DNA from: a virus
Length of the DNA stretch: 64,000 bases
IMG/VR virus record: IMGVR_UViG_3300032220_000699
Coordinates: 1-64,000 of that record
Direction: 5' to 3' (one strand)
Shown here: piece by piece, positions 1-36,261 of the stretch
Numbering within the stretch: position 1 is the first letter of the stretch
How the letters are laid out: every line of letters begins with the position of its first letter
Made by a program: the position numbers and the translations under genes
Notes under the pieces: model-generated
Told to the model about the DNA's origin: nothing
Seen by the model: the letters and a program-made list of their open reading frames with translations, nothing else
Database searches by the model: none

Positions 1-3000
1 CCTTATTCGACCACACCTAGCGGTTTCTTGAAGTGTAACGGCGCTGAAGTTGATAAGACGACTTACGCTAATCTTTATTCTGTTATTGGTGATACTTTCG
101 CAGGTGATTTAACTCCTGGTTGTGGTAAGCCATGGCAGTTACAATATGCTTTTAATAAAGCACAAACAGCTGATGTTTTAGGTTGGTCTATTGGAACGTC
201 TTTACCAAGTGTTTTATGTCACACAACAGCTATTGTTACTAAGAATCGTGTTTACGTTCTTGGTGGTTACAATGGTTCAGCTTACACATCTACGGTTTAT
301 ACTGCTCCGATTAATAGTGATGGTACTATCGGAACATGGGTAACTGGAACACCGTTACCTTTAGGATTGATTGCATCAAGTGGTTTTGTTATTAATAATA
401 AAATTTATCTTGTCGGCGGTGCAACAGGCATAGGAACATATTTAAGTAATGTTTACTATGCCACTATTAATAGTGATGGTACTATTGGTTCTTGGGTAAC
501 TGGTCCCTCATTACCTGGTTTATTGGGATATACAAAAGTTATTGTTACTAAAAAACGTGTTTATACGTTAGCCGGTAACAATGGTAGTATTGCTATTTCT
601 ACAATTTATACTGCTACCATTAATGACGATGGAACTCTTAATGCGTGGTCTGCATATGGATCATTGCCTTATTCAGGATATCTCTGTTATACTGCTGTTA
701 TTAAAGATCGCTTATATGTTATTGGTGGCTACAGTAGTGGTTATAGAAGAGACGTTTATTACGCTAATATTGATAGCGAAGGTCTTTTAGGGGCTTGGAT
801 TTCTGGTATTTTCTTGCCAAAGGGTATGTCTCATGGCGAGTGTTTTACTACAGAAAATAAAATTCATATTACTTTTGAAAATGAGGTTTACACAGCACCT
901 ATCTATTCAGACGGTAGTTTAGGTACATGGTATAAGAGTGCAACACTTCCTTATAACATGGGTGAAACTGAATGTGTTATTACTAGTAGTAAAATTTATT
1001 TGATTTCAGCAGCTGCCGGTACTTATAATGGTTATGTTATATACGCTGATTTTGCTGGTGGTGGTAATGATTATTCTGCTTATTATGGCGGTGCGGATGC
1101 AACTATTAATTATTTAATACCTGGTTGTGGTAAACCATGGCAGCAACAATATCAGATCAATAATACACAATCTGCCGATATCACTGGTTGGTCTACATCT
1201 GGCACTCTTCCAGACAGTGTTTTAGCACCACAGGCAATTGTTACCAAGAATCGTGTTTATTTGATTGGTGGAGATAATACAACTACAGCAGCTGGTGCTA
1301 TTTCTTCGGTATATACAGCACCTATCAATAGTGATGGCACACTTGGAACATGGTCAGCTGGTACAAGTCTACCTGGTGCTTTAAGTAGAAGCACTAATGT
1401 TATTACCAAGAATCGCATATATATCATTGGTGGTTGGAATGGAACATCTGCTGTTTCTAGTATTTATACTGCTGTTATTAACGCAGATGGCACATTAGGT
1501 GCATGGTCAACAACTACTTCTTTTCCTATAGCTATCTACTGGACTAATTGTGTAGCTATTAAAAATAAACTTTATACTTTTGGCGGGATTAATGGTAGTT
1601 CGGTATCAGTTTCAAGCATTTATAGCGCGACTATTAATTCTGATGGAACTATTGGTGCTTGGTCTAATGTTTCGTCTTTGCCTGTTGCTGTTAATTCAAC
1701 ATCTATAGCTTTAACTAAAAATAAAATATATTTAATTGGTGGTCACACAGGAAGCACTTATTTAAATAATGTTTATGTGGCTTCTATAAATTCCGATGGA
1801 ACTTTAGGCGCCTGGAGTTCTAGTTATTCTTTACCTACTGTTGTTTCTACAAGTCAAGTTTTCGTGACTAAAAATACAATTTATTTGTTAGGAGGTAGCG
1901 CTAATAGTTCTACTCCAACTACGATAGTTTATAAAACTTCTATTAGTTCTGATGGTTCAATAGGCGCATGGGCGGCAAGCACATCATTGTCATCTGCTTT
2001 GTCAGGATCACAAGTTATTGGGACTAATAATCGTGTGTATTTGCTTGGTGGTAGTCTAAACACATGGTCAAATCCAACAAATACTATCATTAGTGCACCA
2101 ATTTCAGGTGGTCTTAATGACTACTCGTCTTATTATGACGGGACATATTCTTTAGATGGCGTAGGTATTAATTACATGATGCCTGGTTCTGGTAAACCAT
2201 GGCAGCAACAATATCAGATCAATGAAACACAGTCTGCCGATATCACTGGCTGGGTGACTGAAACCCCCTTATCATTTAATATTTGCGCACAAGGATGTAT
2301 AGTCACTAAGAATCGTGTTTATTTTATTGGTGGTTGGAATGGTAGTATAAATAGTGCTATCTCTACAGTTTATACTGCTCCTATAAATTCTGATGGAACT
2401 TTAGGTGCTTGGACAACTGGCACCAGTTTACCAGGAGCTATAAGTTTCACACAAACTATCACAACTAAAAATAGAGTATATGTATTAGGTGGATCAACTA
2501 CCGTTGCACATGTTTCTACAGTTTATACTGCGCCTATTAATTCTGACGGTACACTTGGCACTTGGTCTACTGGAAATAGTTTGCCAGGAAATCTTTCCTC
2601 GTCTTCAGCTGTTATAACCAAGAATCGTATATATCTAATTGGTGGTCACAATGGTTCTGCTTCAGTGTCTACTGTTTATACTACAGTAATTAACTCTGAC
2701 GGTACTATCGGCACTTGGACTACTGGTACATCTTTACCCAGTCCTGTTGGTAATTCTGTAACTATTGTCACTAAGAATCGTGTCTATTTATTAGGTGGAA
2801 GCAATTCTGGAACTTATATCTCTACAGTTTACACAGCACCTATTAATACTGACGGAACTTTAGGTGCTTGGACAACTGGTACCAGTTTACCTATTGCACC
2901 TCATTCGCATAATGTGTTTGTTACAAAAAATACAGTTTATCTTTTTGGTGGATTTAATGGTGTTGCTCTTCTTTCTAGCGTTTATCGGGCATCTATTAAT

Positions 3001-4365
3001 GCTGATGGTACATTAGGCAGTTGGTCAATAGCTACTTCTTTGCCTTCTTATAGCAATAATGCTTCTGTTATAGCCACTAAAAATCGTATCTATCTGATGG
3101 GTAACTGGAATGCAAATCAAACTACTTCAGGTACTGTTTATTCTGCGGCAATTCTTGAAGGTTTGAATGACTATTCTCCATACTACGATGGAACATATAT
3201 TACACCTGATACGACAGTTAATTACATGATGCCTGGTTCTGGTAAACCTTGGCAGCAACAATATCAAATTAACCAAACACAGATTGAAAATAATTTAGCT
3301 TGGTCAGCCGGAACAGCTCTTCCTTCGGTGCTTTCTAGCACACAAACAGTTGTAACTAAGAATCGTGTTTATCTAATTGGCGGAACTACCAATGGCAGTA
3401 ATGCTGTTTCCACTGTTTATACTGCTCCTATCAATGTCGATGGAACTTTAGGTACTTGGGTTACAGATACATCTATTCCTGGTGTTTTAAGTAATTCTCA
3501 GGCGATAGTAACTAAGAATCGTGTATACCTTTTAGGAGGCACGACCACTTCTTCAGCGTATACTTCTGTAGTTTATACAGCACCTATCAATAGTGACGGA
3601 ACTTTAGGCAGTTGGTCAACTGCTACCAGTTTGCCGAGCAATTTTGCATACTCACAGGCAATAGTAACTAAGAATCGTGTATACCTTTTAGGTGGACATA
3701 ATGGTAGTGCGCATACTTCTACAGTCTATACTGCTCCTATTAATACTGACGGTACACTTGGTACTTGGACTACTAGTTCATCATTACCTGGTGTTTTAAC
3801 ATTTAGTTCAGTAGCTATAACTAAGAATCGTGTATACCTTTTAGGTGGTTTTAATGGTAGCGGTTGGTCGTCTACTGTTTATACCGCAGCCATTAACAGC
3901 GATGGCACTTTAGGCACTTGGTCAACTAGCACTTCTCTTCTTAATGTGTTAGGTCGATCTATATCTTTTGTTACCAAAGATCGTATTTGGTTGTTTGGCG
4001 GTGACATCAACCAACCAACATTTTCTGCAAATGTTTACACAGCGCCTATCAACACTGATGGTACAATTGGAACATGGGTTTCTAATTTAACACTAGTAGG
4101 CGGAGCTTTGCCTGGTGGATTAAGTTTTTCACAATTAGTTTGTGTTAAAAATTACCTATATCTTTTAGGTGGGTACACTGGATCAAGTACAGTTACATCT
4201 GTTGTTTATAAAGCTCCTGTGTTGTCCGATATACAAGATTATTCTCCGTACTATGACGGAACAATTCAACCTGTTTCAACAGTTTCTACTAAGTTTAAAT
4301 TGCCAGACTACACTCTTCTCGATAGAGAGTTTGGTGAATCTGTAACTAGTTATATCAAGTTTTAA
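1..4365 (+). CDS. Tail fibre/adhesin, 5'-truncated by the window: split tail-collar domain with 4 tandem six-bladed Kelch-like propeller modules
   Basis: Frame is open from base 1 (PYSTTPSGFLKCNGAEVDKTTYANLYSVIG, collar N-half). 24 repeats of about 51 aa (TKNRVYLLGG...VYTAPINSDGTLG.W). C-terminal KFKLPDY resembles the collar C-half. Confidence 0.85.
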   Translation, partial: PYSTTPSGFLKCNGAEVDKTTYANLYSVIGDTFAGDLTPGCGKPWQLQYAFNKAQTADVLGWSIGTSLPSVLCHTTAIVTKNRVYVLGGYNGSAYTSTVYTAPINSDGTIGTWVTGTPLPLGLIASSGFVINNKIYLVGGATGIGTYLSNVYYATINSDGTIGSWVTGPSLPGLLGYTKVIVTKKRVYTLAGNNGSIAISTIYTATINDDGTLNAWSAYGSLPYSGYLCYTAVIKDRLYVIGGYSSGYRRDVYYANIDSEGLLGAWISGIFLPKGMSHGECFTTENKIHITFENEVYTAPIYSDGSLGTWYKSATLPYNMGETECVITSSKIYLISAAAGTYNGYVIYADFAGGGNDYSAYYGGADATINYLIPGCGKPWQQQYQINNTQSADITGWSTSGTLPDSVLAPQAIVTKNRVYLIGGDNTTTAAGAISSVYTAPINSDGTLGTWSAGTSLPGALSRSTNVITKNRIYIIGGWNGTSAVSSIYTAVINADGTLGAWSTTTSFPIAIYWTNCVAIKNKLYTFGGINGSSVSVSSIYSATINSDGTIGAWSNVSSLPVAVNSTSIALTKNKIYLIGGHTGSTYLNNVYVASINSDGTLGAWSSSYSLPTVVSTSQVFVTKNTIYLLGGSANSSTPTTIVYKTSISSDGSIGAWAASTSLSSALSGSQVIGTNNRVYLLGGSLNTWSNPTNTIISAPISGGLNDYSSYYDGTYSLDGVGINYMMPGSGKPWQQQYQINETQSADITGWVTETPLSFNICAQGCIVTKNRVYFIGGWNGSINSAISTVYTAPINSDGTLGAWTTGTSLPGAISFTQTITTKNRVYVLGGSTTVAHVSTVYTAPINSDGTLGTWSTGNSLPGNLSSSSAVITKNRIYLIGGHNGSASVSTVYTTVINSDGTIGTWTTGTSLPSPVGNSVTIVTKNRVYLLGGSNSGTYISTVYTAPINTDGTLGAWTTGTSLPIAPHSHNVFVTKNTVYLFGGFNGVALLSSVYRASINADGTLGSWSIATSLPSYSNNASVIATKNRIYLMGNWNANQTTSGTVYSAAILEGLNDYSPYYDGTYITPDTTVNYMMPGSGKPWQQQYQINQTQIENNLAWSAGTALPSVLSSTQTVVTKNRVYLIGGTTNGSNAVSTVYTAPINVDGTLGTWVTDTSIPGVLSNSQAIVTKNRVYLLGGTTTSSAYTSVVYTAPINSDGTLGSWSTATSLPSNFAYSQAIVTKNRVYLLGGHNGSAHTSTVYTAPINTDGTLGTWTTSSSLPGVLTFSSVAITKNRVYLLGGFNGSGWSSTVYTAAINSDGTLGTWSTSTSLLNVLGRSISFVTKDRIWLFGGDINQPTFSANVYTAPINTDGTIGTWVSNLTLVGGALPGGLSFSQLVCVKNYLYLLGGYTGSSTVTSVVYKAPVLSDIQDYSPYYDGTIQPVSTVSTKFKLPDYTLLDREFGESVTSYIKF

Positions 4366-4414: not shown

Positions 4415-5098
4415 TTATCGACGAACTAAGTTTTCCAACTGTGTTGGTTCTTTTTCTTTCTGAACCAAAGCTGAAGTCAAACCTTCTGTAAAGTAATTAC
4501 CTGCTACTTTATTCAATGTACTTAATGCCGAGAAATAGACATTTGTCAGATCAACAAACTCGGGAGTAGCGCTAGGATCTTGTCTTAAAAAGACAGACTT
4601 ATCTTTCTTTGTTCTAGCAATAAAACTGGTAACCAACTCAGCGGCTACAAAGTTATCACCAAGGTTACTACCAGAATAAGGCTGTAAATTATCCATAACC
4701 TTAATCAAGTCCTCATAACCCATAAACCAAGGACCCTTAGCATAGATAAAATAATTTTCAAAGAAGTTATAGCTAAGAAGATCTTTCTTAACAACATTCA
4801 CATTGTTAATGATGCAGTCATCTTTACCATAGATCAACTGAATATAAGTTTCACCATCACGATCAACCTCACCAATAATAATCGGAGAAGTGTTAATCAA
4901 TGTAGGCACAACTGATACACTATAACTGTCGCCAATGATGATAGCAAATACACCATAAAGATAAGTCACATCCTGAATATCCAGAAGTTCTTTATTAGCA
5001 TACCACTTTGGAAACTCGATGATTGTCTTTTCTTTTGTAAAGACTTTGTTGTCTTTGATATACAGCTTTGATTCGATAAGTGCTTTATCTCGTTTCAC
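4415..5098 (-). CDS. Probable C-terminal beta' fragment of the virion RNA polymerase (phiKZ gp176-like)
   Basis: 227 aa, GTG start with AAGGAG RBS. The C-terminal NVYFSALSTLNKVAGNYFTEGLTSALV resembles the beta' terminal region. Assignment is from memory. Confidence 0.55.
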   Translation of the reverse strand: MKRDKALIESKLYIKDNKVFTKEKTIIEFPKWYANKELLDIQDVTYLYGVFAIIIGDSYSVSVVPTLINTSPIIIGEVDRDGETYIQLIYGKDDCIINNVNVVKKDLLSYNFFENYFIYAKGPWFMGYEDLIKVMDNLQPYSGSNLGDNFVAAELVTSFIARTKKDKSVFLRQDPSATPEFVDLTNVYFSALSTLNKVAGNYFTEGLTSALVQKEKEPTQLENLVRR

Positions 5099-8820: not shown

Positions 8821-11800
8821 TTACACACGAGACATGATGTACAGATGCAGTTCACGGATCTGAGCTTGCAGATCAGCAACCAGGGCATCCACTTCAGTCT
8901 TGGTATAGACGTCTTGAATTCCGAGATCAGCAATAGCGGTCGGATTCTGACCAGCAGTTGCACGACCCTTAGCATCAAAGGTTGTCTTGGTATAGGTACC
9001 AGCAGTGATACCAGAATCAGCAAGTGTTGAAACCAGAGCCACATTACCAGTACCGTCAAAGTTGACAGCCGGAGCAGTTGCGTCACCAGTCATAGAGAAC
9101 TGACGAACATTCTGGAGAGCAGTTGCTGTAGAAGCATTACCGTTAAGAGCGCCAGTGATGATATTGGCAGAGAAATTGCCACTCGAATCACGGCTAACCA
9201 GCGTATTAGCATTGGCGTCAGACGTAGCGTTAGAAATAACAACGATGTTACCAGAGGTAGCACCATCACCGTTTGTCACGGTCAGACCAATACCAGAAGC
9301 AATAACGCTCTTAGTTACAAAGCTATCAGTAGAATCACGAACAATAATACCAGCCGTCGTCACGCCAGAAACGGAAGTCAGGTTAGCATTCAGCGGCTGA
9401 GCATCTGTGATGCCGTAACCAGCGATTGTGTTCGGATTCGAACCAGCAGTAATACGACCATAACCATCGGTAGTAACCTTGGTGTAGGAACCAGGTGTAA
9501 CACCAGTTGTAGCCAGATCGATATTATCAGAGTTAATAACAATACGACCAGGGTTAGCTGTATTGATATCGATTGTGTTACCAGTCAGGGTCAGACCGTT
9601 GCCGGCGATGATAGAACCTTGACCAGAGAACTGATTGATAGCGATAGCATCGGTACCAATAGCAAATGTAACCGGATCAGAAACAGTCATGACCCAGCCA
9701 GTACCCTTCAGTGTGTTACCGTCGAACACATAGAAGTAGCTACCGGAGATTTCCGAAGACTCGTCAACCGTATTGATACGCTTGAGGATGAACGGTGTAC
9801 CAGCATCACCAACTTGCTGAACAGCGTAATCACCATTTTCAAGACCGTTAGTTTGCAGACGAACAAGAATACGATCGCCGACGTTCGGGGTCTTACCGTC
9901 AACAGACAGAGCACCATTAGAGGTACCAGTCAGTGTGGAATTAACACCAAACGAACCATTGTTATAAGTAGCAGCCAGATTGCCGGTTGTAGCCAAACGC
10001 ACTGAAGGCTTGGTAACCAGACCTTGTGCAACAGCGTCAACATACTGCTTGGAAGCAGGATGCATAGCTTGCTGCGGATCAGCATGCAGTGTGACATAAC
10101 CAGTCATTGTACCACCAGCCAACGGGAGCTTAGTAGAATCCTGAGCATCCACATAGGACTTGGTAACCGGATCACTATTCAGAGAACCAACGGTTGACTG
10201 GAGTGAAGTGATTTGTGTTTGAAGAGCCGTATCGGCATTGTCAATATAGGTCTTCTGCGTAGCATCCTTGCTGTCGACGTACTGCTTAGGAGCAGCTTCG
10301 AGGTTAGCAGTCGGATCACCCGGCAGAACAAGAGCACCAGTCATCGTGTCACCAGACTTGGAGACCTTCAGAGCGTCTTGTGTATCGATGTAAGTAGCCT
10401 GAGCAGCGTCCTTGTCATCGACATACTTCTTAGTAGCAGCTTGCAGGTCAGCAGTCGGAGCACCAGACAGAACCAGAGCGCCTGTCATTGTATCACCGGC
10501 CTTAGAGACCTTAAGAGCATCTTGACTATCTGTATACTGCTTCGTAGCAGCTTGCAGACCTGTTGTCGGATCAGCAGACAGTGTCAGCAGACCAGTCATT
10601 GTACCACCAGAGAGATTAACCTTAGAGTCAATCTGATCTTGAACATTACTAGCAATGCCAGTAAGTTGGTTAATATCACTGAAAGAAACAGTGATACCAT
10701 CGATTAAGGTATTCTGATCAACAGTTAAGTGCTTAGCTTCGTCAGAAGCATGTGTTGTAACAGTTGTATCAACATAGTTCTTCGTAGCAGAATGCATGCT
10801 AGATGTCGGGTTAGCTGACAGAGTCAGGAAACCAGTCATCGTGTCACCAGCCTTGTTCACCTTAAGGGCGTCGGCGGCATCAGTGTACTGCTTAGTAGCC
10901 GGTTGCAGAGGAGCAGCAGGATCAGCAGACAGTTCAATTGCGCCAGTCATCGTGCCGCCAGCTAAAGGCAGCTTAGCGTCAAGTTGGGTCTGAACAGCAG
11001 AAGTTGTACCTTGCAGGTAATTGACTTCAGTTGACGTGACAGTCAAACCGTCCAGGAAAGTATTCTGACCAGCGGTCAGGTGAAGTGAGGCATCTGACGT
11101 GTGACCAGACAAACCACCATCAACATACTGCTTGGTAGCGGCATGAAGAACAGCTGTCGGATCAGCGTGCAGTGTCAGGAAACCAGTCATTGTGTCGCCG
11201 GCTTTGGCAACCTTCAATGCATCCTGAGTATCAATATAGGTAGCCTGAGCAGCATCCTTATCATCGACATACTTCTTAGTAGAAGCATGCAAATCGGCAG
11301 TAGGAGCACCAGACAGAACCAGAGCACCAGTCATGGTGTCGCCGGCCTTATTAACCTTCAGAGCATCAGCTGCATCAGTGTACTGCTTAGTAGCCGGTTG
11401 CAGACTAGCAACAGGATCAGCAGCAAGTGTGATAGCACCAGTCATTGTACCGCCAGCTAAAGGCAGCTTAGAGGCCAGTTGAGTCTGAACGTTATCAGTG
11501 ATACCAGTCAGTTGGTTGATATCAGTAAATGTGACAGTGATACCATCCAGCAGCGTGTTTTGTGCTGAAGTAACGTGCAGTGACGCATCGTTGGCATGTG
11601 TCGAGATATTGGAATCAACATACTGCTTAGTAGCAGCGTGGAGATTAGAAGTAGGATTAGCTGACAGAGTCAGGAAACCAGTCATTGTGTCGCCGGCCTT
11701 AGCAACCTTAGTTGCGTCTTGGTCATCGACATAAGTCTTTGTAACAGGATCTGTGTTCAGGGTAGCGACCGTGCCTTGCAGCGTGGTAACTTGACCTTGA

Positions 11801-14160
11801 ATATTAGCATCGGCTGCATCAACATAACCCTTGTTAACTGCATCGGCAGCAACAGCAGGAATAGTGTTAAGACGCAGAGAACCAGCTGTTTCAACAGTAA
11901 CATTACCTGTAACAGTGCTAGATCCAGTCTTAGAAACCTTATCAGCGATATCAGCGATAACAGTGTCAGAAACCTTAACACCATTACCAGAAGAAGTCAG
12001 TGTAGTTCCATCAAGATTAACTTGGATCTTACCACCAGCGATTTCAAGGCCGCCAGCTGCTTCCAGGTTAACTTCAAGAACATCAGCATTAACAGCAAGA
12101 CCATTGCCGTAATTAACATTAAGAATATTGCCTGCCAGAGACAGAGCATCACCAGCTGTCAGGTTAACTGATGTATTAGTCGGAGTCCAGTTACCTTCAT
12201 CAGTACGGGTGTAAGAAACACCAAACTTAGAAGATTCCGGATCAAAGACCAGAGTTGTCGAACCAGCTTCAACTGCGTCAGCAACATACTGAATAGCACC
12301 AGCAGTAGCATTCGTGATGGTAACAATCTTGTTATCATGAGCGGTCAGGGTTGCGCCGACCACGGTAGCCGAGGTCAGAGAAACACCGAAACGATCACCA
12401 ACAGCAACGGCACGAGCTTGCAGGAATACCCATTCTGTACCATTGTGGAAAGTAGCATAACCAGCCTTACCAGCCCATGCAGCTGTCGGAGCAGCACCAA
12501 CAATGTAAACATCGTTAGCAACAGGAGAGGCAGGCGGTGTATTGAGATCATCAGCAACCAGGTTAATATCGGTAACCGGATCTTGCCACTTCTGACCAGC
12601 GATCAATGAATCAACATAGGTCTTGTTAACAACTTCAGTTCCAGTAGCAGGAACCTTAGAAACAAAAATTGTCTTACCAGCGTCAAGAGTAACATCACCA
12701 GTAATTGTGCCACCGGCCTTGTCAAACTTAGCATCGATCTGTGCCTGAACACCAGAAGTAACACCAGCCAAACGGTTAATTTCTGTAGAAGAAACCGTAA
12801 TACCGTCAAGAAGAGTATTCTGAGCAGATGTCAGGTGAACTGTGTCATCAGAAGCGTGTGTAGAGACAGTCGTATCAACATACTGTTTCGGAGCAGCTTC
12901 AAGATTAGCAGTCGGGTTACCTGGAAGAACCAGAGCACCAGTCATGGTGTCGCCGGCCTTATTGACCTTCAGAGCATCAGCTGCATCGGTATATTGCTTG
13001 GTCGCCGGTTGCATTGCAGTAGCCGGATCAGCAGCCAACGTGACGGCACCAGTCAACGTACCACCAGCAAGAGCTAACTTAGAATCAAGTTGTGACTGAA
13101 CGTTAGAAGAAACACCAGAAAGTTGGTTAACTTCTGCAGACGAAACAGTGATACCGTCGATAAAAGTATTCTGAGCAGATGTCAAGTGCAGAGAAGCATC
13201 GGTTGCGTGACCGCTAAGACCACCGTCGACATATTGCTTAGTAGCAGCTTGCATTGCAGAGACAGGATCGGCAGACAGAACCAAAGGTCCAGTCATTGTG
13301 TCACCAGCCTTAGCAACCTTCAGCGCGTCTTGCGTGTCGATATAAGTAGCTTGTGCAGCATCCTTGTCGTCAACATACTTCTTGGTCGAGGCGTGCAGAT
13401 CAGCAGTAGGAGCACCAGACAGAACCAAAGCGCCTGTCATCGTGTCGCCGGCCTTAGCAACCTTTAACGCATCAGCTGCGTCGGTATATTGCTTGGTCGC
13501 CGGTTGCATTGCAGCAGTCGGGTCAGCAGCAAGAACCAATGTTCCGGTCAGTGTACCACCAGCCAGTGCCAGCTTAGAATCAATCTGAGTTTGGACATTA
13601 GCAGAAACACCAGCCAGTTGGTTAACTTCACCTGAAGAAACTGTAACAGCGTCTAGGAAAGTATTCTGAGCAGATGTCAGGTGCAGTGATGTATCGGAAG
13701 CATGTGACAGAATTTCTGAATCAACGTACTGTTTAGGAGTAGCATGCAAAGCCGACGATGGATTTGCATTAAGGGTCAAGAACCCTGTCATTGTATCGCC
13801 GGCTTTATTCACCTTAAGGGCGTCAGCGGCGTCGGTATATTGCTTCGTCGAAGCTTCGAGATTAGTAGAAGGGTTACCGGCAAGAGTCAGAGCACCGGTC
13901 ATCGTTCCACCAGCAAGAGCCAGCTTAGAATCCAGTTGTGACTGAATACCACTTGTAACACCTGACACATAGTTGAGTTCGGTGGCCGTAGCGGTCAACG
14001 AGTCAAGTAACGTGTTTTGTGCAGTTGTGAGGTGCAGACTAACATTATTAGCATGTGCAAGAATACTGTTATCAACATAATTCTTGTTCGCGGCTTCCAT
14101 CGGGAGCTGCGGATCGCGCGGCGTGATGATAGGCTGATTACCATATACACTAAGTTTCAT
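8821..14160 (-). CDS. Long repetitive tail fibre protein (1779 aa)
   Basis: Many KV.KAGDTMTG.L.L..DP....AATKQYVD and H..D.SLHLT.AQNT.LDG repeats; a central DUF2793-like segment (DVYIVGAAPTAAWAG); C-terminal fibre modules (VRLATT..GDRILV..QT..ENG; GVTPGSYTKVT.D..GR). AAAGGAG RBS. Confidence 0.85.
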   Translation of the reverse strand: MKLSVYGNQPIITPRDPQLPMEAANKNYVDNSILAHANNVSLHLTTAQNTLLDSLTATATELNYVSGVTSGIQSQLDSKLALAGGTMTGALTLAGNPSTNLEASTKQYTDAADALKVNKAGDTMTGFLTLNANPSSALHATPKQYVDSEILSHASDTSLHLTSAQNTFLDAVTVSSGEVNQLAGVSANVQTQIDSKLALAGGTLTGTLVLAADPTAAMQPATKQYTDAADALKVAKAGDTMTGALVLSGAPTADLHASTKKYVDDKDAAQATYIDTQDALKVAKAGDTMTGPLVLSADPVSAMQAATKQYVDGGLSGHATDASLHLTSAQNTFIDGITVSSAEVNQLSGVSSNVQSQLDSKLALAGGTLTGAVTLAADPATAMQPATKQYTDAADALKVNKAGDTMTGALVLPGNPTANLEAAPKQYVDTTVSTHASDDTVHLTSAQNTLLDGITVSSTEINRLAGVTSGVQAQIDAKFDKAGGTITGDVTLDAGKTIFVSKVPATGTEVVNKTYVDSLIAGQKWQDPVTDINLVADDLNTPPASPVANDVYIVGAAPTAAWAGKAGYATFHNGTEWVFLQARAVAVGDRFGVSLTSATVVGATLTAHDNKIVTITNATAGAIQYVADAVEAGSTTLVFDPESSKFGVSYTRTDEGNWTPTNTSVNLTAGDALSLAGNILNVNYGNGLAVNADVLEVNLEAAGGLEIAGGKIQVNLDGTTLTSSGNGVKVSDTVIADIADKVSKTGSSTVTGNVTVETAGSLRLNTIPAVAADAVNKGYVDAADANIQGQVTTLQGTVATLNTDPVTKTYVDDQDATKVAKAGDTMTGFLTLSANPTSNLHAATKQYVDSNISTHANDASLHVTSAQNTLLDGITVTFTDINQLTGITDNVQTQLASKLPLAGGTMTGAITLAADPVASLQPATKQYTDAADALKVNKAGDTMTGALVLSGAPTADLHASTKKYVDDKDAAQATYIDTQDALKVAKAGDTMTGFLTLHADPTAVLHAATKQYVDGGLSGHTSDASLHLTAGQNTFLDGLTVTSTEVNYLQGTTSAVQTQLDAKLPLAGGTMTGAIELSADPAAPLQPATKQYTDAADALKVNKAGDTMTGFLTLSANPTSSMHSATKNYVDTTVTTHASDEAKHLTVDQNTLIDGITVSFSDINQLTGIASNVQDQIDSKVNLSGGTMTGLLTLSADPTTGLQAATKQYTDSQDALKVSKAGDTMTGALVLSGAPTADLQAATKKYVDDKDAAQATYIDTQDALKVSKSGDTMTGALVLPGDPTANLEAAPKQYVDSKDATQKTYIDNADTALQTQITSLQSTVGSLNSDPVTKSYVDAQDSTKLPLAGGTMTGYVTLHADPQQAMHPASKQYVDAVAQGLVTKPSVRLATTGNLAATYNNGSFGVNSTLTGTSNGALSVDGKTPNVGDRILVRLQTNGLENGDYAVQQVGDAGTPFILKRINTVDESSEISGSYFYVFDGNTLKGTGWVMTVSDPVTFAIGTDAIAINQFSGQGSIIAGNGLTLTGNTIDINTANPGRIVINSDNIDLATTGVTPGSYTKVTTDGYGRITAGSNPNTIAGYGITDAQPLNANLTSVSGVTTAGIIVRDSTDSFVTKSVIASGIGLTVTNGDGATSGNIVVISNATSDANANTLVSRDSSGNFSANIITGALNGNASTATALQNVRQFSMTGDATAPAVNFDGTGNVALVSTLADSGITAGTYTKTTFDAKGRATAGQNPTAIADLGIQDVYTKTEVDALVADLQAQIRELHLYIMSRV

Positions 14161-15352: not shown

Positions 15353-18300
15353 TTATTTACCAAAATAAATATCTGCTACTTGTTTAGAAACATGTTTAAG
15401 AAGTCTATTTGTTGTACCGATTAGAATAGGAGAATTCACAATACGGTTCAACATCCCACGATAACTGAATACAGCGTCAACTCGTTCACCTGACTCAGTC
15501 GTAATACTATTTGTATAGACATCAGAAATAACTGACTTCATCTGGTTAGCAAAGACACCCTTGTCACCGATAGCCTGTGTAAGACGAACACGAATGTAGA
15601 CTTTGAGTTCTAACGTATCCATATTCAAATTCTTACCACCAACTCGATATTCAGATGTCACTGAACCATTTGCATTTTCAATAGCGGTTCCTTTTGTTTC
15701 GTCATAAAGTTCTCTATCTAAACGAGAAGCTAGTTTACGCAACGAAGGAGACATATCCGACAATTCACCATTGTAACGGATTTCATATTTATCAATCTTG
15801 CCTTTAACCTTTGCCTTAGGTGACAAAGAGGCAAGAGACTGTAACATCTCAATAGTAGATTCAGATAGATTATTGTAGTCTGTGTTCTCATCCAGAACTG
15901 TGAACAGAATGTCATTCGGTTCAACTTCAGATCCTTCAGGAATAAGACCAGTAATATTTTTATTAAACTCAATGATGAAAGATTTCTCTTTCACAATGAT
16001 AGTTGACATATCTTCACTAAGTTCTGTAGAAATCGCTGAAGAGTCTTCAAAGACTTCATTAGTCATAGTTAGTGCTACTTTAACAGTCCTACCAAACTTC
16101 ATGACAAGCTTAGAAGTATCTAACCAATCAGGTTCAAAGAACCCAGTATTATAAACGAGGTAATCATTTTTCTTAAACTTATTACCGACTTGAAGTTTAG
16201 TAGCAAGTTCATGCGGATAAACAGAACCTTCCATTCGTCCATAACGATTACCTAACTGAATGCTTTCAGTTTCACCGTTCTTATATTTCACAGTGAGAAG
16301 TTTATCAGTCTTAGCGGTTACCGAACCATCGTCTTTAGCAACAGAACAATAAAGCTTACCGACCTTAAACGGCATCATATATTCGTAACCAGTTCTCAGT
16401 AAAGGTTGCATATAACCTTCGGACATGATTGTATGTCCGTTCTGAATGTTCACGAAGTTAATACGCTTCGGATCATCTTGATCAGAACCAGGTGATAGCA
16501 ACACGGAGGTAGAGAACAGTTTAGATTTGTTTTCAATATGTTCTTGATTATCCATATCAATCAAACCACGGACATCCTTAAATCTTGCATAAGGAGTAAG
16601 ATAAGTATTTAGAGCAACATCACCAGAGTCAACAGTAGCTTCAGAAATAAAACCAGTGTCATTTTTATGGAAACGTCTCATGTATAAAGGAGTTGCGTCT
16701 TTGTTAAGACCATCCATCCCGGAGAAAGTAACTGCTTCAATTTCTTTCGTATCGGTGATAGGATTATTATCTTCAGTAATTTTGACAGTGTTATCTTGAG
16801 TGACATAGTTCCACACTTTGTATGGATCAAGTTCAATCTTAGATCTACCACCACCTTTAAATTTATATGTGCGAATACTTTCGGCAAGTGCTCTATACAT
16901 TAAACCAGGCATACGATCATAACCACGAATACGACAATACTTAGGATCGTTGATATCTGGATAAGCAAAATCTTTCAGAAGTTCATTTGCTCTAAATAAA
17001 AGCTTAAAGAAATCAGTCGGTTCACTCATACTCGCAAGAACGTCGACTGTAATCGGATCAAGAAAGAGTTCCTCGAGTAGATTGATCTCTTTAATATGAA
17101 TAAGTGATAAGTTACGATGTTCAAGCAAAGCAAGATAGATTTCTTTATAATCAAAATCTTTCAAACTGTGTTGCTTAATAACATCCTTGAAATAGAAGAA
17201 ACCATTAAACAGAAGTTGTTGTTCTGGTTTTGTGGTTTTAATAATAAGTTTATAGTCAGCAAACTTAAGAACAATTTCATCCTTAGTTGGCTTATACTGT
17301 TTATTTGATTCTAATAATTGATGTTCAACACCAGTCACAGAAATCAAATTAGAGATACCCAAGTAATAAGACATGACAACGCCTAACGGAATAGCGTCGC
17401 CAAGAATATTGATCATTGTGAAAGACTTAGGAAGCTTAGTGCGATCCAATTCAAGTAGATCAACTAAGTCACCCATCTCTTCCATGTTCTTTGTATAGTT
17501 AAAGATATTATCCTGATAATCTGTAACCAGAATGTTCTTTGATTTGTCATAACCAACAAACACTAAATCCTTGGCAGCAAGTTCCTTGACCACATTCTGA
17601 TCAATATAGTCTGTCATGTGTTTATGGTTAAAGATGAATTTATATTTATCTGTTTCAACACTACCAAAATGCATGGACATATTCGTGTACATGTTTGGGA
17701 GTAGAATAAGATTAGAATAGAAGTTACCTGGTTGAATCTTAATGATGTTACCATCACCAGCTATATAAGTTTCTTTGATATGATCAACAATATAAGCAAA
17801 ACTATCGAAACTCTTACGTTCTGTTCTGAAAACAAACAGTTTGCTATAGTTACTTGTTAAAGCAACACGAGTTGGTGAGATCTTACGAATAGGTAGATCT
17901 GTTCTTTGTTTACGCATACGGTAACGAATACCAGAGGCAGTAAACTCACCCTCATCATCAATCTTCGGAAGTCGGAAATAAACAGTAGACTCTTTACCGT
18001 GCAAAGGTTTAAGAGTTAGTTTATGAACTTCATATTGTCCTAACACAGAAGAATTATCTTCTACTGTGTAGTCTTTAATAATGACACCGGCTTTTTCAAT
18101 GTTAGTGATACAAGCGCTGATGTCTTTCTTCATTACTGTGTTTAGATATTTACGATCAAGGTTAAGAATAACCTCTTTCTTTAAATTGTCAGTAACTAAT
18201 GGATTATCAATATCAAGTACAGTATCTTCCTTAGTCAGCTTTGTTTGACCAGGTTGAATTTTGCTAAAGTTATCAATAGTTGAATTAGGATCGTAAGGAG

Positions 18301-19699
18301 ATTTCAATCCTTGTCTTGCTTCGAATGTTTTTCTTAACGTTCTGATCTCTTGTGAAGTTAGGAGTTTAAATTCCATAACTTCTTTCAGATAGTTATCAAA
18401 CTTATCTTGTAAAGTCTTATCCTTAAGAATCTTTTCCAGATGTTCAGGATCAGTATTAACAACAATAGGTGATTTATTTTCTTCTTCAGTTTCTGCGTCA
18501 ATCTGAAGAATAGAATCTTCGAAGATGCGATCTGTTTCCGAAGCATCATTTTGTTTAAGTTCTTCATCAAGCAACTGATTAAGACTAGCAATATTCGTAT
18601 CAACTGCGTTAGCGATACGATCATCAAAAGCTTTATCAACTTGAGCTAAACTAACAGGTTTATTTGCTTCTGGTGTTATACCAGAAATTTCAGGTAGTTC
18701 TGTGTCATGCGTGATGTTAAAATCTTCATTATGATCTTCATCATCCTCATGTTTAATTTGTTCACCAATTTCTTCTGGTGTTTCATCAATAAGTGTGCTA
18801 TCTTCACCTTGTTGATCGAGTTCAAGAATAGCGTTAATCTTGTTCTGGATCTTATAAAGTGTAAGGATAAATAACTTCTTAGTTTTAAGTGGTGAAATCT
18901 TAGAATTGTTTTCAATCTTAGACTCATCGCAAACACTACGAATAACAAACAAAGGCATAAAAGAACTATAACCTTTGTAATTAAATTCAATAATAATTCG
19001 TTTAGAGTCGTCGTCTGAAATATTCTTCAGAGTAGAGTTTTCACGAGTTTCATTAATCAACCATTTATAGAGATCAATAACTTGTGCAAGACGAACATCG
19101 TTAACAATACGAGCAAACTTAATCGGATTGAATTTTAAAATTACATCAAGCACATTGACATTCGGAATAACATTCGGAAGTTCAATCTTGATAAATTGAT
19201 AAGACTCATTCTCTTTACTAATAGCATGTTTAACATAATGCCAAACTGTGCTATGTAAATTAAGGTATTTGAAATGAGAAGATAGAAGTGATGATTTATA
19301 CTTATAAAGATCCTTAAGAAGATTATAGTTGTAAACTGAAACAACATTAACATCTTCATTAGGGATTTCTGCAAGATTAATATTCTTGAATTCTTTTGTA
19401 TTCTCTTGTCCCCATTTACGAACTTCCTGACCTACTGTCTTATTCAACAGCATTGAAGTTTCATCTTTGGACACTAAATCCAAAACGTGGTAAATAGGAA
19501 TACGTTTATTCTTACCAACTTGGCTAAAATAAGGTAACTCACGATTAGGAAAATGACTTTCCACACTGTGATCTAGATAGTGAAGAATAGAAAGACGTGG
19601 AAGATTAATTTCTTCTTGCTTAATCACAGCTGGATTAAGTAAGTAAATTGGACTTCTTATAGCTTCTTTTAAAAGAAACTGATTGAACATTAATAACAT
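15353..19699 (-). CDS. Virion RNA polymerase beta subunit (phiKZ gp178-like)
   Basis: About 1450 aa with beta motifs (YRMRKQR, GRMEG, EDS, GDKGVFANQMKS). Start moved to the ATG at 19699, which has an AAAAGGA RBS. Confidence 0.85.
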   Translation of the reverse strand: MLLMFNQFLLKEAIRSPIYLLNPAVIKQEEINLPRLSILHYLDHSVESHFPNRELPYFSQVGKNKRIPIYHVLDLVSKDETSMLLNKTVGQEVRKWGQENTKEFKNINLAEIPNEDVNVVSVYNYNLLKDLYKYKSSLLSSHFKYLNLHSTVWHYVKHAISKENESYQFIKIELPNVIPNVNVLDVILKFNPIKFARIVNDVRLAQVIDLYKWLINETRENSTLKNISDDDSKRIIIEFNYKGYSSFMPLFVIRSVCDESKIENNSKISPLKTKKLFILTLYKIQNKINAILELDQQGEDSTLIDETPEEIGEQIKHEDDEDHNEDFNITHDTELPEISGITPEANKPVSLAQVDKAFDDRIANAVDTNIASLNQLLDEELKQNDASETDRIFEDSILQIDAETEEENKSPIVVNTDPEHLEKILKDKTLQDKFDNYLKEVMEFKLLTSQEIRTLRKTFEARQGLKSPYDPNSTIDNFSKIQPGQTKLTKEDTVLDIDNPLVTDNLKKEVILNLDRKYLNTVMKKDISACITNIEKAGVIIKDYTVEDNSSVLGQYEVHKLTLKPLHGKESTVYFRLPKIDDEGEFTASGIRYRMRKQRTDLPIRKISPTRVALTSNYSKLFVFRTERKSFDSFAYIVDHIKETYIAGDGNIIKIQPGNFYSNLILLPNMYTNMSMHFGSVETDKYKFIFNHKHMTDYIDQNVVKELAAKDLVFVGYDKSKNILVTDYQDNIFNYTKNMEEMGDLVDLLELDRTKLPKSFTMINILGDAIPLGVVMSYYLGISNLISVTGVEHQLLESNKQYKPTKDEIVLKFADYKLIIKTTKPEQQLLFNGFFYFKDVIKQHSLKDFDYKEIYLALLEHRNLSLIHIKEINLLEELFLDPITVDVLASMSEPTDFFKLLFRANELLKDFAYPDINDPKYCRIRGYDRMPGLMYRALAESIRTYKFKGGGRSKIELDPYKVWNYVTQDNTVKITEDNNPITDTKEIEAVTFSGMDGLNKDATPLYMRRFHKNDTGFISEATVDSGDVALNTYLTPYARFKDVRGLIDMDNQEHIENKSKLFSTSVLLSPGSDQDDPKRINFVNIQNGHTIMSEGYMQPLLRTGYEYMMPFKVGKLYCSVAKDDGSVTAKTDKLLTVKYKNGETESIQLGNRYGRMEGSVYPHELATKLQVGNKFKKNDYLVYNTGFFEPDWLDTSKLVMKFGRTVKVALTMTNEVFEDSSAISTELSEDMSTIIVKEKSFIIEFNKNITGLIPEGSEVEPNDILFTVLDENTDYNNLSESTIEMLQSLASLSPKAKVKGKIDKYEIRYNGELSDMSPSLRKLASRLDRELYDETKGTAIENANGSVTSEYRVGGKNLNMDTLELKVYIRVRLTQAIGDKGVFANQMKSVISDVYTNSITTESGERVDAVFSYRGMLNRIVNSPILIGTTNRLLKHVSKQVADIYFGK

Positions 19700-19811
19700 A
19701 ATCTGTCCTTTTGGCTTGATCACAAAATTCGTAGTTACATCTTTTTTAATTTAGCTGTTTTGTTAGAAGAATTCTGTGAACCATATTTCTAGGCTAACTG
19801 AAGGAGTTATT

Positions 19812-22601
19812 ATGAGAGTCAACATGGGTAGAGAAGGCCGCACTTCTTCGTCTTTGAGTGCTAACGGCGGCTCGATGCTTGGTGCTTTGATCCTGGCGAA
19901 CGGACCATCGCAACCTTTAGAGGCGGCTACTAAATATTACGTCGATTCGACATTTGCAAGTTTGAATGCAAATAACGTGCTTGATGGTGTTCTTCCTATT
20001 TCTAGTCTTCCTGGATTCACCGGGGACGCTACATCTCCACAAGGATCTAATGTTATTACTTTAACTAATCTTGGTGTCACACCTGGTTCTTATGCTAAGA
20101 TTATTGTTGATGCTAAGGGTCGTGTTACTGGCAATGACATTCTTACTGAATCTGATATCCCGAATATTGGATGGGATAAAGTTCAAAATAAACCTAATAC
20201 TCTTGAAGGTTATGGTATCACAGACGCGTTAAGTGTTACTGGTGGTGTTTTTGGTGGACAAATGTCTGTTGTCCCTCCGACAAATCCATTATCATCTGTA
20301 AGTAAACAGTATGTTGATTCTGCTCTTAGCGGTAACTCAGCTGTTGTAGGTGACATTATTCGTAAACCTTACGCTAGTACTCCGACAGGTTTCTTACGTT
20401 GTAATGGTGGTGTTGTTGATAAAGTAATGTATTCTGATCTTTATTCAGTTATCGGTGATACATTTAGTGTTAATACACTTGCTGGGTCAGGACAGCCATG
20501 GCAACAACAATATCAGATTAACGATTTACAGTCTGGTAATTTAACAAATTGGGTTCAAAATACAAATACACCTTACGCTGTTTTATATCATAAATGTGTT
20601 GTCACTAAACATCGCATCTATCTGATAGGTGGAGGAAACTCATCAACTAGATGGGGTACTATTTATACCGCTCCAATTCAGTCAGATGGTGTTATAGGTG
20701 TTTGGAGTGCTGCTGCTTCATTACCTGGTGAATTTGCTTATTTTCAAGCATTTGTAACTAAAAATAGACTTTATCTGATTGGTGGTGGTGGAAACACTAT
20801 AACCTCATTTGACACGATTTACACAGCTCCCATTGGAAGTGATGGTGCATTAGGCACATGGACAACTAGTGGAAATTTCCCTGTCGCTGTCAATGGTGTT
20901 CAAGTCGTTGTTTTGAAAGATAGAGTTTACGCATTTGGAGGCGGAAATTCCTCTGGTGCACTTAATTCTATTTATAAAGCAAACATAAATACTGATGGTA
21001 CTTTAGGTGCTTGGTCTTTATATGGAAATTTACCCACTAATTTAATTGCTGGTAATGTGGCTGTTACCAAAAATAGAATTTATCTGATCGGTGGAGGTAC
21101 AACTGCTTCTGCTTTTGTTAACACTGTTTATTCAACAACTATTAATTCGGATGGTACATTAGGTACATGGTCTTTATATGGAACAATTCCTTTAAATTTA
21201 ACTGTTGGTTGTATTTATGTTACTAAAAATTGTATTTATCTGTTAGGCGGAGCTTATGCATTAAACACATATACGTCTAATATTTATAAAGCTAATATAA
21301 ATTTAGACGGCACTTTAAGTGGTTGGGAAATGATTGGCAATATGCCTTATACTTTAGGTTATAGCACATGTGTGGCTGTAAAAAATAAATTGCATGTTAT
21401 AGCTGGTTATATTGGTGGTAGTGTTTCTAATGCGATTATGACAGCCACTATTAATAATGTTATACAAGATTATTCTCCTTATTACGGTGTAGATAATGAT
21501 TTAAACTATTTATTGGCTGGTTCAGGTAAACCATGGCAACAGCAGTATCAGATTAACAACACACAAACTAATGATATTACTAATTGGTCAATTTCTACTA
21601 GTTTACCAGTTGCACTGACTGACACATTTACAGTTGTTACTAAGAATCGTGTTTATCTCTTAGGTGGCACTAAAAATGGTAATATCCATAGTGGAATTTA
21701 TAGTGCCACGATTAATAGTGATGGCACATTAGGAACATGGGCTCCAGACGGAAACATACCAGAAGCTAATTTTTATGGTCAATCAATCGTAACTAAGAAC
21801 CGTGTTTATTTATTAGGCGGTGCCTATAATGCGATTGTTAACACAGCTCCTATTAATGCCGATGGTACATTAGGTACTTGGGTTGCATCTGCAAGTTTAC
21901 CTGGTGCTGTTGGTGTGGCGCAAGCCTTTGTTACTAAGAATCGTGTATATCTTTATGGTGGTAATAATGGTGGTGGTATTTTATCGTCAGGATATACTGC
22001 TGTAATTAATAGTGACGGCACCTTAGGCGCTTGGTCATCTGCACCATCTTTGCCTATCGGGTTAAGTCATTCCTCTGTTATTTTGACAAAGAATCGTGTA
22101 TATCTTTGCGGAGGTTATAATGGTTCATATACTAATGCTGTTTACAGTGCTATAGTTTATAGTAATGGTACTATAGGTTCATGGGGTATCGATACTTCTT
22201 TGCCTGGTGTTAAAGCTATGGCTCAGTCTTTTGTAACTAGTGATAGAGTTTATTTATTTGGTGGATTTAATGGTAGTGCTTATACCAATGTTGTTTATAC
22301 CGCACCTATTAATGCCGATGGTACATTAGGTACTTGGACAACAGGGACTTCTATACCAGGTATTATGGCAGAGGCTACTATAGTTGCAACCAAAGATCAT
22401 ATATACATGATAGGTGGTTATAATGGTGGATATATGGATGCTGTCTATATGGCCACTATTTCTGGTGGTTTAAATGACTATTCATCTTACTATGATGGTT
22501 CAATTTCTGCTTTAGAGCCTATCGATCAAACACCATTTTTCGCTTTGCCTGATTTCTCAGCTCGTGAAAAGAATGGCATTAATCTTTATATCAAGTACTA
22601 A
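19812..22601 (+). CDS. Tail fibre/adhesin: split collar domain with 2 six-bladed Kelch-like modules
   Basis: ATG at 19812 after AAGGAG. Fibre repeats, then GFLRCNGG..YSDLYSVIG, 12 Kelch-like blades and C-terminal FALPDF. Paralogue of 1..4365. Confidence 0.85.
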   Translation: MRVNMGREGRTSSSLSANGGSMLGALILANGPSQPLEAATKYYVDSTFASLNANNVLDGVLPISSLPGFTGDATSPQGSNVITLTNLGVTPGSYAKIIVDAKGRVTGNDILTESDIPNIGWDKVQNKPNTLEGYGITDALSVTGGVFGGQMSVVPPTNPLSSVSKQYVDSALSGNSAVVGDIIRKPYASTPTGFLRCNGGVVDKVMYSDLYSVIGDTFSVNTLAGSGQPWQQQYQINDLQSGNLTNWVQNTNTPYAVLYHKCVVTKHRIYLIGGGNSSTRWGTIYTAPIQSDGVIGVWSAAASLPGEFAYFQAFVTKNRLYLIGGGGNTITSFDTIYTAPIGSDGALGTWTTSGNFPVAVNGVQVVVLKDRVYAFGGGNSSGALNSIYKANINTDGTLGAWSLYGNLPTNLIAGNVAVTKNRIYLIGGGTTASAFVNTVYSTTINSDGTLGTWSLYGTIPLNLTVGCIYVTKNCIYLLGGAYALNTYTSNIYKANINLDGTLSGWEMIGNMPYTLGYSTCVAVKNKLHVIAGYIGGSVSNAIMTATINNVIQDYSPYYGVDNDLNYLLAGSGKPWQQQYQINNTQTNDITNWSISTSLPVALTDTFTVVTKNRVYLLGGTKNGNIHSGIYSATINSDGTLGTWAPDGNIPEANFYGQSIVTKNRVYLLGGAYNAIVNTAPINADGTLGTWVASASLPGAVGVAQAFVTKNRVYLYGGNNGGGILSSGYTAVINSDGTLGAWSSAPSLPIGLSHSSVILTKNRVYLCGGYNGSYTNAVYSAIVYSNGTIGSWGIDTSLPGVKAMAQSFVTSDRVYLFGGFNGSAYTNVVYTAPINADGTLGTWTTGTSIPGIMAEATIVATKDHIYMIGGYNGGYMDAVYMATISGGLNDYSSYYDGSISALEPIDQTPFFALPDFSAREKNGINLYIKY

Positions 22602-33267: not shown

Positions 33268-34185
33268 TTACAGAACTACATCATCAGAATTGGAATTACT
33301 AACTTCCAGTTCCTTAAACTTGTTGATCTTCTTGTTGTCTTGAAGATCCTTGATTTCGCGTTCCATTTCTTCAACGATAATAGACAGCTTACCAAGGATA
33401 TTGTCAACACGAATATCTTCATTCTTGTATTGCGGATCGGTGACAACACAAGTAGACAGGTATTCCGGAACAACCGGCTTAATGGTCGAATGCTTATCGG
33501 TCGTCAGCAAAATACTGCTAACAATCGTTGTATTCTTTTCCGGATTAATAGTTTCGTTTTCATTGACTTCAAGGATCGAAACGGTTGGGGAATTATCCGT
33601 AACACGATCGAAGTTAATGAAATTAGTAAGATCAGTCGTATCGAATTCTTCTGTATGCTGCTTATTCACCAGCAGGGAAAGAAGATTGATGAACCAGACA
33701 GCCTTGTTATCGCTTTCTTTGCGATTGCTGTTTTCGATATAGAAAATGCTGATGGCTTTCTTGATACCATCGGAGATAGACTTGTAAGTCTTGAAAGTCT
33801 TAATCGTGTTGTCCAGTTCCTTAACGGAGTGCTTGGAATCGATTGCGATAACGATCGTATTGTGACCTTGACGAATCAATTCTTTTGCAACCAGCGGAGC
33901 GATAATGCTACCAGAACCACCGGACAACGAAGACACGACAACGTTCAGAGAAGGAGAAGGTTTGAATTTGATAACGACATCACCAGCGATGTCTTTGAAA
34001 TGTTCATAGGTCTTAGAACGATCTTTGCCTGCGCCGTCGATATTTTCGAGGACGAAGATATTGTCAGACTTCACACCCTTGAGGTTAGAGGTCGACGTGT
34101 CGATATAGTTGACTTCGATATCGAGGTCAGAAATTTGTTTTGCAATGTTACTACCACAACCGCCACAAGCGAATACAGAGATCAT
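33268..34185 (-). CDS. phuZ: Phage tubulin PhuZ
   Basis: VFACGGCGSNI, YIDTS, GAGKDR, SLSGGSGS (tubulin signature) and D..D.TNF; short acidic tail ending DDVVL; 305 aa. Confidence 0.92.
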   Translation of the reverse strand: MISVFACGGCGSNIAKQISDLDIEVNYIDTSTSNLKGVKSDNIFVLENIDGAGKDRSKTYEHFKDIAGDVVIKFKPSPSLNVVVSSLSGGSGSIIAPLVAKELIRQGHNTIVIAIDSKHSVKELDNTIKTFKTYKSISDGIKKAISIFYIENSNRKESDNKAVWFINLLSLLVNKQHTEEFDTTDLTNFINFDRVTDNSPTVSILEVNENETINPEKNTTIVSSILLTTDKHSTIKPVVPEYLSTCVVTDPQYKNEDIRVDNILGKLSIIVEEMEREIKDLQDNKKINKFKELEVSNSNSDDVVL

Positions 34186-36137: not shown

Positions 36138-36261
36138 GTGAAACTCCTTCTTCTGTTTGATGGATGTGAAAAATTCGATGTCTCTAAGTCAGCTACAGGC
36201 GATCACCTGTAACTTTCTCACTCTATATGAATAATAGTAATTTTTTAATATTTGAAATTGA

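Follow-up and report, generated by a model that had tools for sequence, protein, structure and literature searches.

A tail-collar domain split by four Kelch propellers in a putative modular receptor-binding fibre of a phiKZ-like jumbo phage

The stretch of viral DNA analysed here (the window; 64,000 nucleotides, positions 1 to 64,000 of the IMG/VR record IMGVR_UViG_3300032220_000699) begins with a gene, referred to below as gene A, in which a small tail-collar domain is interrupted by a series of four six-bladed Kelch propellers. Related proteins carry between zero and four such propellers, and close orthologues that share shaft and collar differ in their propellers, which have been exchanged like cassettes. 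We read gene A as encoding a modular fibre by which a nucleus-forming, phiKZ-like jumbo phage binds its receptor, and assign to this reading a probability of about 0.72.

Gene A occupies frame 1 and has no stop before the terminal one (1454 codons and a stop). Since the window and a linear viral contig of 189,134 bp (estimated completeness 94%) begin at the same base, the gene lacks its 5' end. Residue 1 aligns with residue 192 of the complete orthologue P0024, which indicates that about 191 N-terminal residues, forming the fibre shaft, are missing. The missing part was not found at the other end of the contig, where the last 900 bases encode nothing shaft-like in the three plus-strand frames. 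The layout of the gene is as follows, with matches to hidden Markov models (HMMs) of the propeller module and of the unbroken collar (see below) in parentheses.

1..4365, plus strand: putative fibre gene A, 5'-truncated (open frame; alignment with P0024)
1..123, plus strand: collar N-terminal part, residues 1-41, strand-strand-helix, GFLKCNG...YANLYSVIGD (PF07484; intact-collar HMM)
118..1086, plus strand: Kelch propeller module 1, residues 40-362 (module HMM 1-334)
1123..2136, plus strand: Kelch propeller module 2, residues 375-712 (module HMM 1-334)
2185..3186, plus strand: Kelch propeller module 3, residues 729-1062 (module HMM 1-334)
3235..4254, plus strand: Kelch propeller module 4, residues 1079-1418 (module HMM 1-334)
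4279..4362, plus strand: collar C-terminal part, residues 1427-1454, with the F.LPD strand, a short turn and the terminal YIKF strand (intact-collar HMM; Pfam score of the joined halves)

An earlier reading made from the DNA letters alone, called here the sequence-only reading, had described a collar N-half followed by four Kelch-like propellers and, some 1400 amino acids later, by the usual F.LPD continuation of the collar, and this order is borne out by Pfam, by the module HMM and by the C-terminal tail. The motif GFLKCNG...YANLYSVIG covers residues 8-30 (bases 22-90), KFKLPDY covers residues 1431-1437 (bases 4291-4311), and the protein ends in ...SYIKF. The proposed opening motif of the modules, G(S/C)GKPWQ(Q/L)QY, is seen in all four of them, and the proposed six blades of about 51 amino acids agree with a period of 50-52 residues and with the make-up of each module, in which a first blade of variant form accompanies five DG(T/S)(L/I)G.W motifs. 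The proposed closing motif NDYS.YY is present in modules 1-3, whereas module 4 has QDYSPYY in its place. Three points had been overlooked, namely the 5' truncation, the existence of four paralogues and the large size of the family (see below). The 189-kb genome has five collar-Kelch genes in all:

1-4365, plus strand: gene A, 4 propellers
19812-22601, plus strand: paralogue B, complete, 2 propellers, with the shaft at residues 1-~175, collar N-terminal part at ~178-228 and collar C-terminal part at 907-929 (AlphaFold model, HMMs)
66353-69163, minus strand: paralogue C, 2 propellers
143517-146339, minus strand: paralogue D, 2 propellers
160580-164416, minus strand: paralogue E, 3 propellers

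The complete genes encode a shaft of about 175-190 residues with KQYVD-type motifs, the collar N-terminal part, the propellers and the tail F.LPD…YIKY; paralogue B is preceded by an AGGAG ribosome-binding site 7 nt before its ATG. Together the five genes contain 13 propeller modules. Twelve of these were compared pairwise and are at most 57% identical, and the thirteenth, the first module of paralogue D, forms a separate tip in the module tree.

Evidence for the split collar comes from several comparisons. The Pfam Collar profile (PF07484) matches residues 2-41 of gene A over profile positions 8-47 of 57 (E 2.7e-10, 40.5 bits, cut-off 24), so that the 57-position profile is not present in one stretch, its remainder lying about 1400 residues downstream. 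Each of the five paralogues scores 35-45 bits with the same profile, and the contiguous match extends only from profile position 1 to approximately 40-48. Joining the N- and C-terminal halves, a check that had been proposed with the sequence-only reading, both raised the score and lengthened the match. For gene A the score increased from 42.5 to 54.0 bits and the matched profile positions from 7-41 to 7-53; for paralogue B the corresponding changes were from 36.7 to 44.4 bits and from 1-39 to 1-55.

A search for shorter relatives yielded 12 propeller-less homologues of 250-258 residues, in which the same shaft is followed by a collar without interruption. The order in these proteins is …GYLRCNGG…LYAVIGD, 6-12 residues, F.LPD, about 10 residues and the terminal YIKY. 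For example, residues 186-241 of the propeller-less protein P0133 cover Pfam Collar profile positions 1-55 in a single piece. For one of these homologues the gene is complete and lies between other genes in a phiKZ-like contig of 127 kb. Since the halves rejoin in the Pfam score and the collar is contiguous in the homologues without propellers, we conclude from these comparisons that gene A has a collar domain in discontinuous form; and since the propeller-less members have it unbroken, the propellers are an insertion, as the sequence-only reading had supposed when it described the collar as split open by a propeller string.

We further built an intact-collar HMM from the collars of the 12 propeller-less homologues. 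Every split protein was matched by it as two complementary pieces with a break at HMM position ~45. Within gene A, residues 3-35 correspond to HMM positions 11-43 (E 1.2e-14) and residues 1427-1453 to positions 45-68, and the same two-piece pattern was obtained for a protein of Bacillus phage vB_BspM_AgentSmith (MW749006; hereafter AgentSmith), the closest cultured relative of the source phage. The second piece is weak when taken alone (independent E-values, i-E, from 3.5e-5 to 0.3), and it is always located at the very C-terminus and is always complementary to the first. Between the C-terminal tail of gene A and those of P0071, P0024 and P0025, identity amounts to 86-92%.

Structural models are consistent with these matches. 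The secondary structure elements of the collar correspond one-to-one in the AlphaFold models of the split paralogue B and the unsplit P0133, and run from a pair of short strands through a helix and the F.LPD strand to a last strand at the end of the chain. The model of P0133, made from an alignment of 12 sequences, is of poor quality, with a predicted local distance difference test score (pLDDT) of 47 overall and 65-74 in the collar. When it was compared with 48,161 PDB chains, only five reached a structural match score Z of at least 2. Each of them is a fibre tip with a collar: the fibre of cyanophage A-1(L) (Z 3.5), three entries of T4 gp12 (Z 2.3-2.5) and T4 gp37 (Z 2.4), with P0133 residues 191-245 aligned on gp12 348…519. 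We regard these fold matches as weak but specific support for a collar fold. By sequence, the collar N-terminal part gave one marginal fibre match in the PDB, the short tail fibre 9cuy (E 0.053).

The inserted modules of gene A are 44-56% identical among themselves, and each spans the 334-position module HMM end to end. The Kelch profiles PF24681 (213.6 bits, cut-off 50) and PF01344 (163.1 bits, 14 stretches) match gene A, the best Pfam Kelch stretch being residues 766-984 in module 3. Module 1 is the most degenerate of the four, and module 2 has no close relative among 371 modules of the family. The AlphaFold model of paralogue B has a pLDDT of approximately 90 in both propellers and matches the six-bladed Kelch domains of LZTR1 (Z 30.3), KLHDC10 (Z 29.6) and YjhT/NanM (Z 29.0) with root mean square deviations of 2.5-2.8 Å over 278-287 residues (for LZTR1, 281 residues at 2.5 Å). 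The six-bladed Kelch modules are thus modelled as closed propellers in which every blade is four-stranded. Alignment of the 371 modules gave the blade consensus …VTKNRVYLlGG(variable ~8)stVYTAPINsDGTLGtW…LP(variable ~7)…, which includes the Kelch hallmarks, a GG doublet and a conserved Tyr and Trp per blade. Variability is concentrated in the same two places of every blade, about 7 residues after 'LP' and about 8 residues after 'GG'. The ligand-binding face of Kelch domains is formed by the D-A and B-C loops, and we take the two variable stretches, by inference rather than by measurement on the model, to be these loops.

One of the best structural matches, YjhT/NanM, is a sialic-acid mutarotase of the Kelch type, which raises the possibility that the propellers are enzymes, such as sugar mutarotases or sialidase-like depolymerases, that degrade or modify surface polysaccharide. 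The Pfam family NANM matches gene A with 110.9 bits, some homologues are labelled 'N-acetylneuraminic acid mutarotase' by JGI, and six-bladed propellers of the sialidase type match the paralogue B model at Z 19-20. However, the non-enzymatic Kelch domains of LZTR1 and KLHDC10 match equally well or better, the NANM match overlaps several generic Kelch families, and the 371 modules conserve the structural blade motif, whereas their surface loops are hypervariable and show no conserved set of polar loop residues that would point to an active site. The comparison with NanM/YjhT, a free-standing periplasmic enzyme, gives a mixed picture: the fold and the NANM profile match, and the architecture differs, the propellers of gene A being fibre inserts with hypervariable loops. 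We consider an enzymatic role quite unlikely, and a binding role of the propellers in a fibre remains our preferred interpretation.

The search for collar-split Kelch arrays in other phages, also proposed with the sequence-only reading, revealed a large metagenomic family in addition to the cultured AgentSmith. Hundreds of metagenomic homologues were found, with lengths that cluster near 590, 940, 1280 and 1620 residues. We counted full propellers in the fetched proteins that have the shaft, the collar N-terminal part and the C-terminal tail. The counts form a series from zero (12 proteins, collar unsplit) through one (~78), two (~59) and three (~32) to four (~6), with roughly 170 complete metagenomic members carrying one to four propellers in the fetched sample. 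Proteins with five or more propellers were absent from the best 150 hits of an exhaustive search of representatives, no dedicated search of longer proteins having been made.

Complete four-module proteins are encoded on other contigs (P0006, P0008, P0032, P0155 and P0158). They are 30-57% identical to gene A and not orthologous to it, so that four-module arrays arose more than once. These proteins also bear on the possibility that the four-module count is an artefact of assembling a repetitive gene, the true gene having fewer modules. The contig is a metagenome assembly, and homologues with 2-5 blades, which could be collapsed repeats, do exist; but modules that are only 44-56% identical in protein are too diverged to mis-assemble, and the same architecture recurs in complete form elsewhere. 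An assembly artefact is on these grounds highly improbable.

Comparison of near-identical orthologues demonstrates that the propellers are exchanged as cassettes on a constant scaffold. In such orthologues the shaft and both collar halves are 90-100% identical, whereas the propellers number two, three or four and can be only 47-59% alike. At the locus of P0024 (L018), the gene following the fibre gene is 97% identical to window bases 4415-5098, and the fibre has three modules against the four of gene A. Between gene A and P0024, identity is 88% for the first modules and 82% for the last ones (module 4 in gene A), whereas the middle modules are unrelated (49-56%). The two-module protein P0071 shares module 1 (98%) and the tail (91-92%) with gene A. 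P0071 and P0025, with two and three modules respectively, have nearly the same shaft (96%), collar N-terminal part (98%) and tail (100%), and their last modules are 59% identical. Similarly, paralogue C and P0077 share module 2 (98%) but not module 1 (47%), and the pattern is reversed between paralogue C and P0063, where module 1 is 83% and module 2 is 49% identical.

Several homologues depart from the regular module. P0131, P0128-P0130, P0127, P0135 and P0226 have 2, 3, 4 or 5 blades between normal caps, and some of these odd-blade homologues contain near-identical consecutive blades. The inserts could be collapsed repeats of short-read assemblies or, alternatively, real partial propellers that are completed when three chains associate in a trimer (2 blades x 3 = 6). 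In P0218 (795 aa) and P0201 (1015 aa), the inserted propeller carries an insertion of its own, since its third blade is followed by 240-470 residues of unrelated Gly/Thr-rich or YNYALTSDG-type repeats. Four giant proteins of 5199-7024 aa (P0154, P0156, P0157 and P0160) ranked highest in the search of representatives and contain many Kelch-like blades that are close in sequence to the modules described here (33-34% identity, with as many as 26 matched stretches). Having neither a collar nor module caps, they were rejected as family members.

If gene A encodes a receptor-binding fibre, its constant scaffold would consist of an N-terminal shaft of about 190 residues and a small C-terminal collar, and its cargo would be the Kelch propellers, carried in the collar loop between the helix (…LY..IGD) and the next strand (F.LPD). 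The chain would exit the collar, make four six-bladed propellers in series and return, its last 28 residues completing the collar, and the series would have to fold back in order that the last propeller could hand the chain back. Because the two termini of a propeller lie side by side, propellers could be gained, lost or swapped without disturbing the scaffold, and the number and identity of the modules have changed repeatedly in evolution, probably through recombination in the conserved linker (NDYS.YY … G.GKPWQQQY). On each propeller, the variable blade loops would provide a separate binding surface.

Such a fibre would be a part of the virion, would assemble as a trimer and would bind a receptor, probably a glycan, possibly with a different specificity for each module. 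Canonical collars trimerise; if the collar of gene A does the same, fibre A would show 12 propellers of four kinds. Multi-specific receptor binding would fit both the hypervariable blade loops and the cassette-like exchange, and the swappable propellers are likely, judging from these sequence comparisons, to be a way of changing which bacteria the phage grips. A broader and more tentative proposal, which we consider possible but rather doubtful, is that the helix-to-strand loop of the collar is a general 'socket' into which propellers are plugged, multiplied and exchanged. It would give 12 propellers of four specificities per trimer of A and 13 different propellers per virion with five fibres, and so a combinatorial host recognition.

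Several observations weigh against the fibre interpretation as a whole. The C-terminal tail of gene A, taken alone, matches the intact-collar HMM only weakly (6.3 bits, i-E 0.17); the unsplit collar resembles gp12 and gp37 only at low scores (Z 2.3-3.5), which were obtained with a model of low confidence; and the contact between the two collar parts of a split protein is deduced from homology, not from a measured distance. In addition, part of the shaft matches the 'head decoration protein' family phrog_3018 (E 3e-9), and the function of the Kelch proteins of jumbo phages has been called unknown (PMC7760394). The last two points, together with the scattering of the five paralogues across the genome, could also indicate that these proteins do not belong to a receptor-binding tail fibre, and that they are instead capsid or neck decorations, or non-virion Kelch proteins that bind host proteins within the cell in the manner of poxvirus Kelch proteins. 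Yet the strongest shaft matches are to tail-fibre families (phrog_7389, E 4e-19), and collars are domains found at the tips of tail fibres. The genes adjoining gene A are virion and tail-fibre genes, and the AgentSmith homologue adjoins baseplate genes. Furthermore, mass spectrometry of phage CBB virions detected a Kelch protein (PMC5259590), and host-range determinants usually vary in this way, by exchange of cassettes while the scaffold stays constant. A location outside the tail fibres is therefore unlikely, and we retain the receptor-binding fibre as the best account of gene A.

The principle of a collar that the chain leaves and re-enters is known. In tips of the T4 gp37 type, the needle and head are built by a chain that has left the collar and afterwards turns back to it (PMC12609058), and the collar of gp12 is formed by residues 342-397 (PMC3004832). 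Like gene A, these proteins have a small collar at the fibre end from which the chain exits and to which it returns to finish the collar. The insertion sites differ, the cargo of gene A being placed before the F.LPD strand and that of gp12 and gp37 after LPDLRG. The site used by gp12 and gp37 is shrunk in the collar-Kelch family, with 10-15 residues left between F.LPD and the YIK(Y/F) end, and the needle with its HxH metal-binding motif is absent. The cargo also differs, with one to four self-contained Kelch propellers in the family of gene A and an interwoven trimeric needle in gp12 and gp37. A canonical tail fibre from Chromobacterium (P0148) has the collar, LPELRG, an H.H-containing insert and …CIKY at its end, which the terminal …YIK(Y/F) strand of the gene A family resembles. 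The sequence-only reading had inferred that the collar loop serves as a display scaffold, which is a fair description, but since T4 gp37-type collars are already left and re-entered by the chain (PMC12609058), the principle is not new. Only the loop used and its cargo are new, and gene A represents a well-supported architecture, a variant of the collar-scaffold fibre tip with zero to four propellers, rather than a categorically new system.

It had also been suggested that the system is undescribed. This agrees with the literature searched, in which we found no papers on AgentSmith and none that describe the collar-Kelch architecture or pair 'tail collar' with Kelch; on the other hand, the one-propeller members of AgentSmith are already deposited in GenBank, and hundreds of members are present in metagenomes. 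AgentSmith has three collar-Kelch members (three Collar N-parts) with one propeller each in frames of 596-641 residues, compared with 2, 2, 2, 3 and 4 propellers in the source phage. Its gp3, annotated 'putative tail fiber protein', has the same split collar and is 33% identical to paralogue B over 99% of the latter.

Other phage propellers are arranged differently. The Kelch proteins reported from jumbo phages (for example CBB_552 and proteins of EL and phiR1-37), one of which was detected in virions (PMC5259590), are six-bladed propellers too, but they are free-standing or differently fused, with no collar or insertion mentioned. Remote structural matches in BFVD include propeller 'virion structural proteins' of phiKZ-like phages with 10-21% identity. 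Among siphophages of Gram-positive bacteria (Staphylococcus, Brochothrix NF5), a propeller platform forms the receptor-binding site on a trimeric fibre (PMC12917162). This platform propeller is five-bladed, does not belong to the Kelch type and is placed in line with the stem, one per chain, whereas the propellers of gene A are inserted in the collar.

Receptor-binding proteins decide which host a phage infects and are the part of a phage that is most often re-engineered. A constant scaffold of shaft and collar that tolerates zero to four independently folding, predicted binding domains in one loop would provide a natural template for the design of multivalent fibres. It further provides a sequence rule for spotting host-range cassettes in jumbo-phage metagenomes and a hypothesis as to what the Kelch proteins of giant phages, so far unexplained, might do. 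Should the collar loop indeed be a general socket, it could explain the broad or shifting host ranges of jumbo phages and could be reused as an engineering chassis. The idea is testable, as AgentSmith is a cultured member of the family.

The source phage was assigned from its gene content. Since it has genes for an RNA polymerase beta subunit, a nuclear shell protein, PhuZ and a large terminase, it is a nucleus-forming phiKZ-like jumbo phage. The large terminase is 61% identical to that of AgentSmith and 36-39% identical to those of phiKZ-like phages. By analogy with this nearest cultured relative, which is the sole basis for the assignment, the host is probably a Firmicute. The following genes in the window are relevant to the assignment or to the surroundings of gene A and paralogue B:

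4415..5098, minus strand: virion structural protein, convergent with gene A (phrog_2926, E 1.7e-47)
8821-14160, minus strand: tail-fibre-like protein, 1779 residues (many PHROG tail-fibre matches)
15353-19750, minus strand: phiKZ-type multisubunit RNA polymerase beta subunit (phrog_3148, 1186 bits)
33268-34185, minus strand: PhuZ tubulin (phrog_4733, E 3.7e-55)
34293-36188, minus strand: nuclear shell protein (phrog_4795, E 1e-67)

The RNA polymerase beta gene is divergent from paralogue B, with 61 bases between them. TTTGACY was considered as a late promoter and rejected, with no occurrence before paralogue B and 22 matches in the window against 27 expected. The G+C content is ~36%. It rises to ~50% in the region of the shell gene, where a long antisense open frame is found on the plus strand, and to 42-48% in the tail-fibre-like gene at 8821-14160, as compared with ~36% in the rest of the window.

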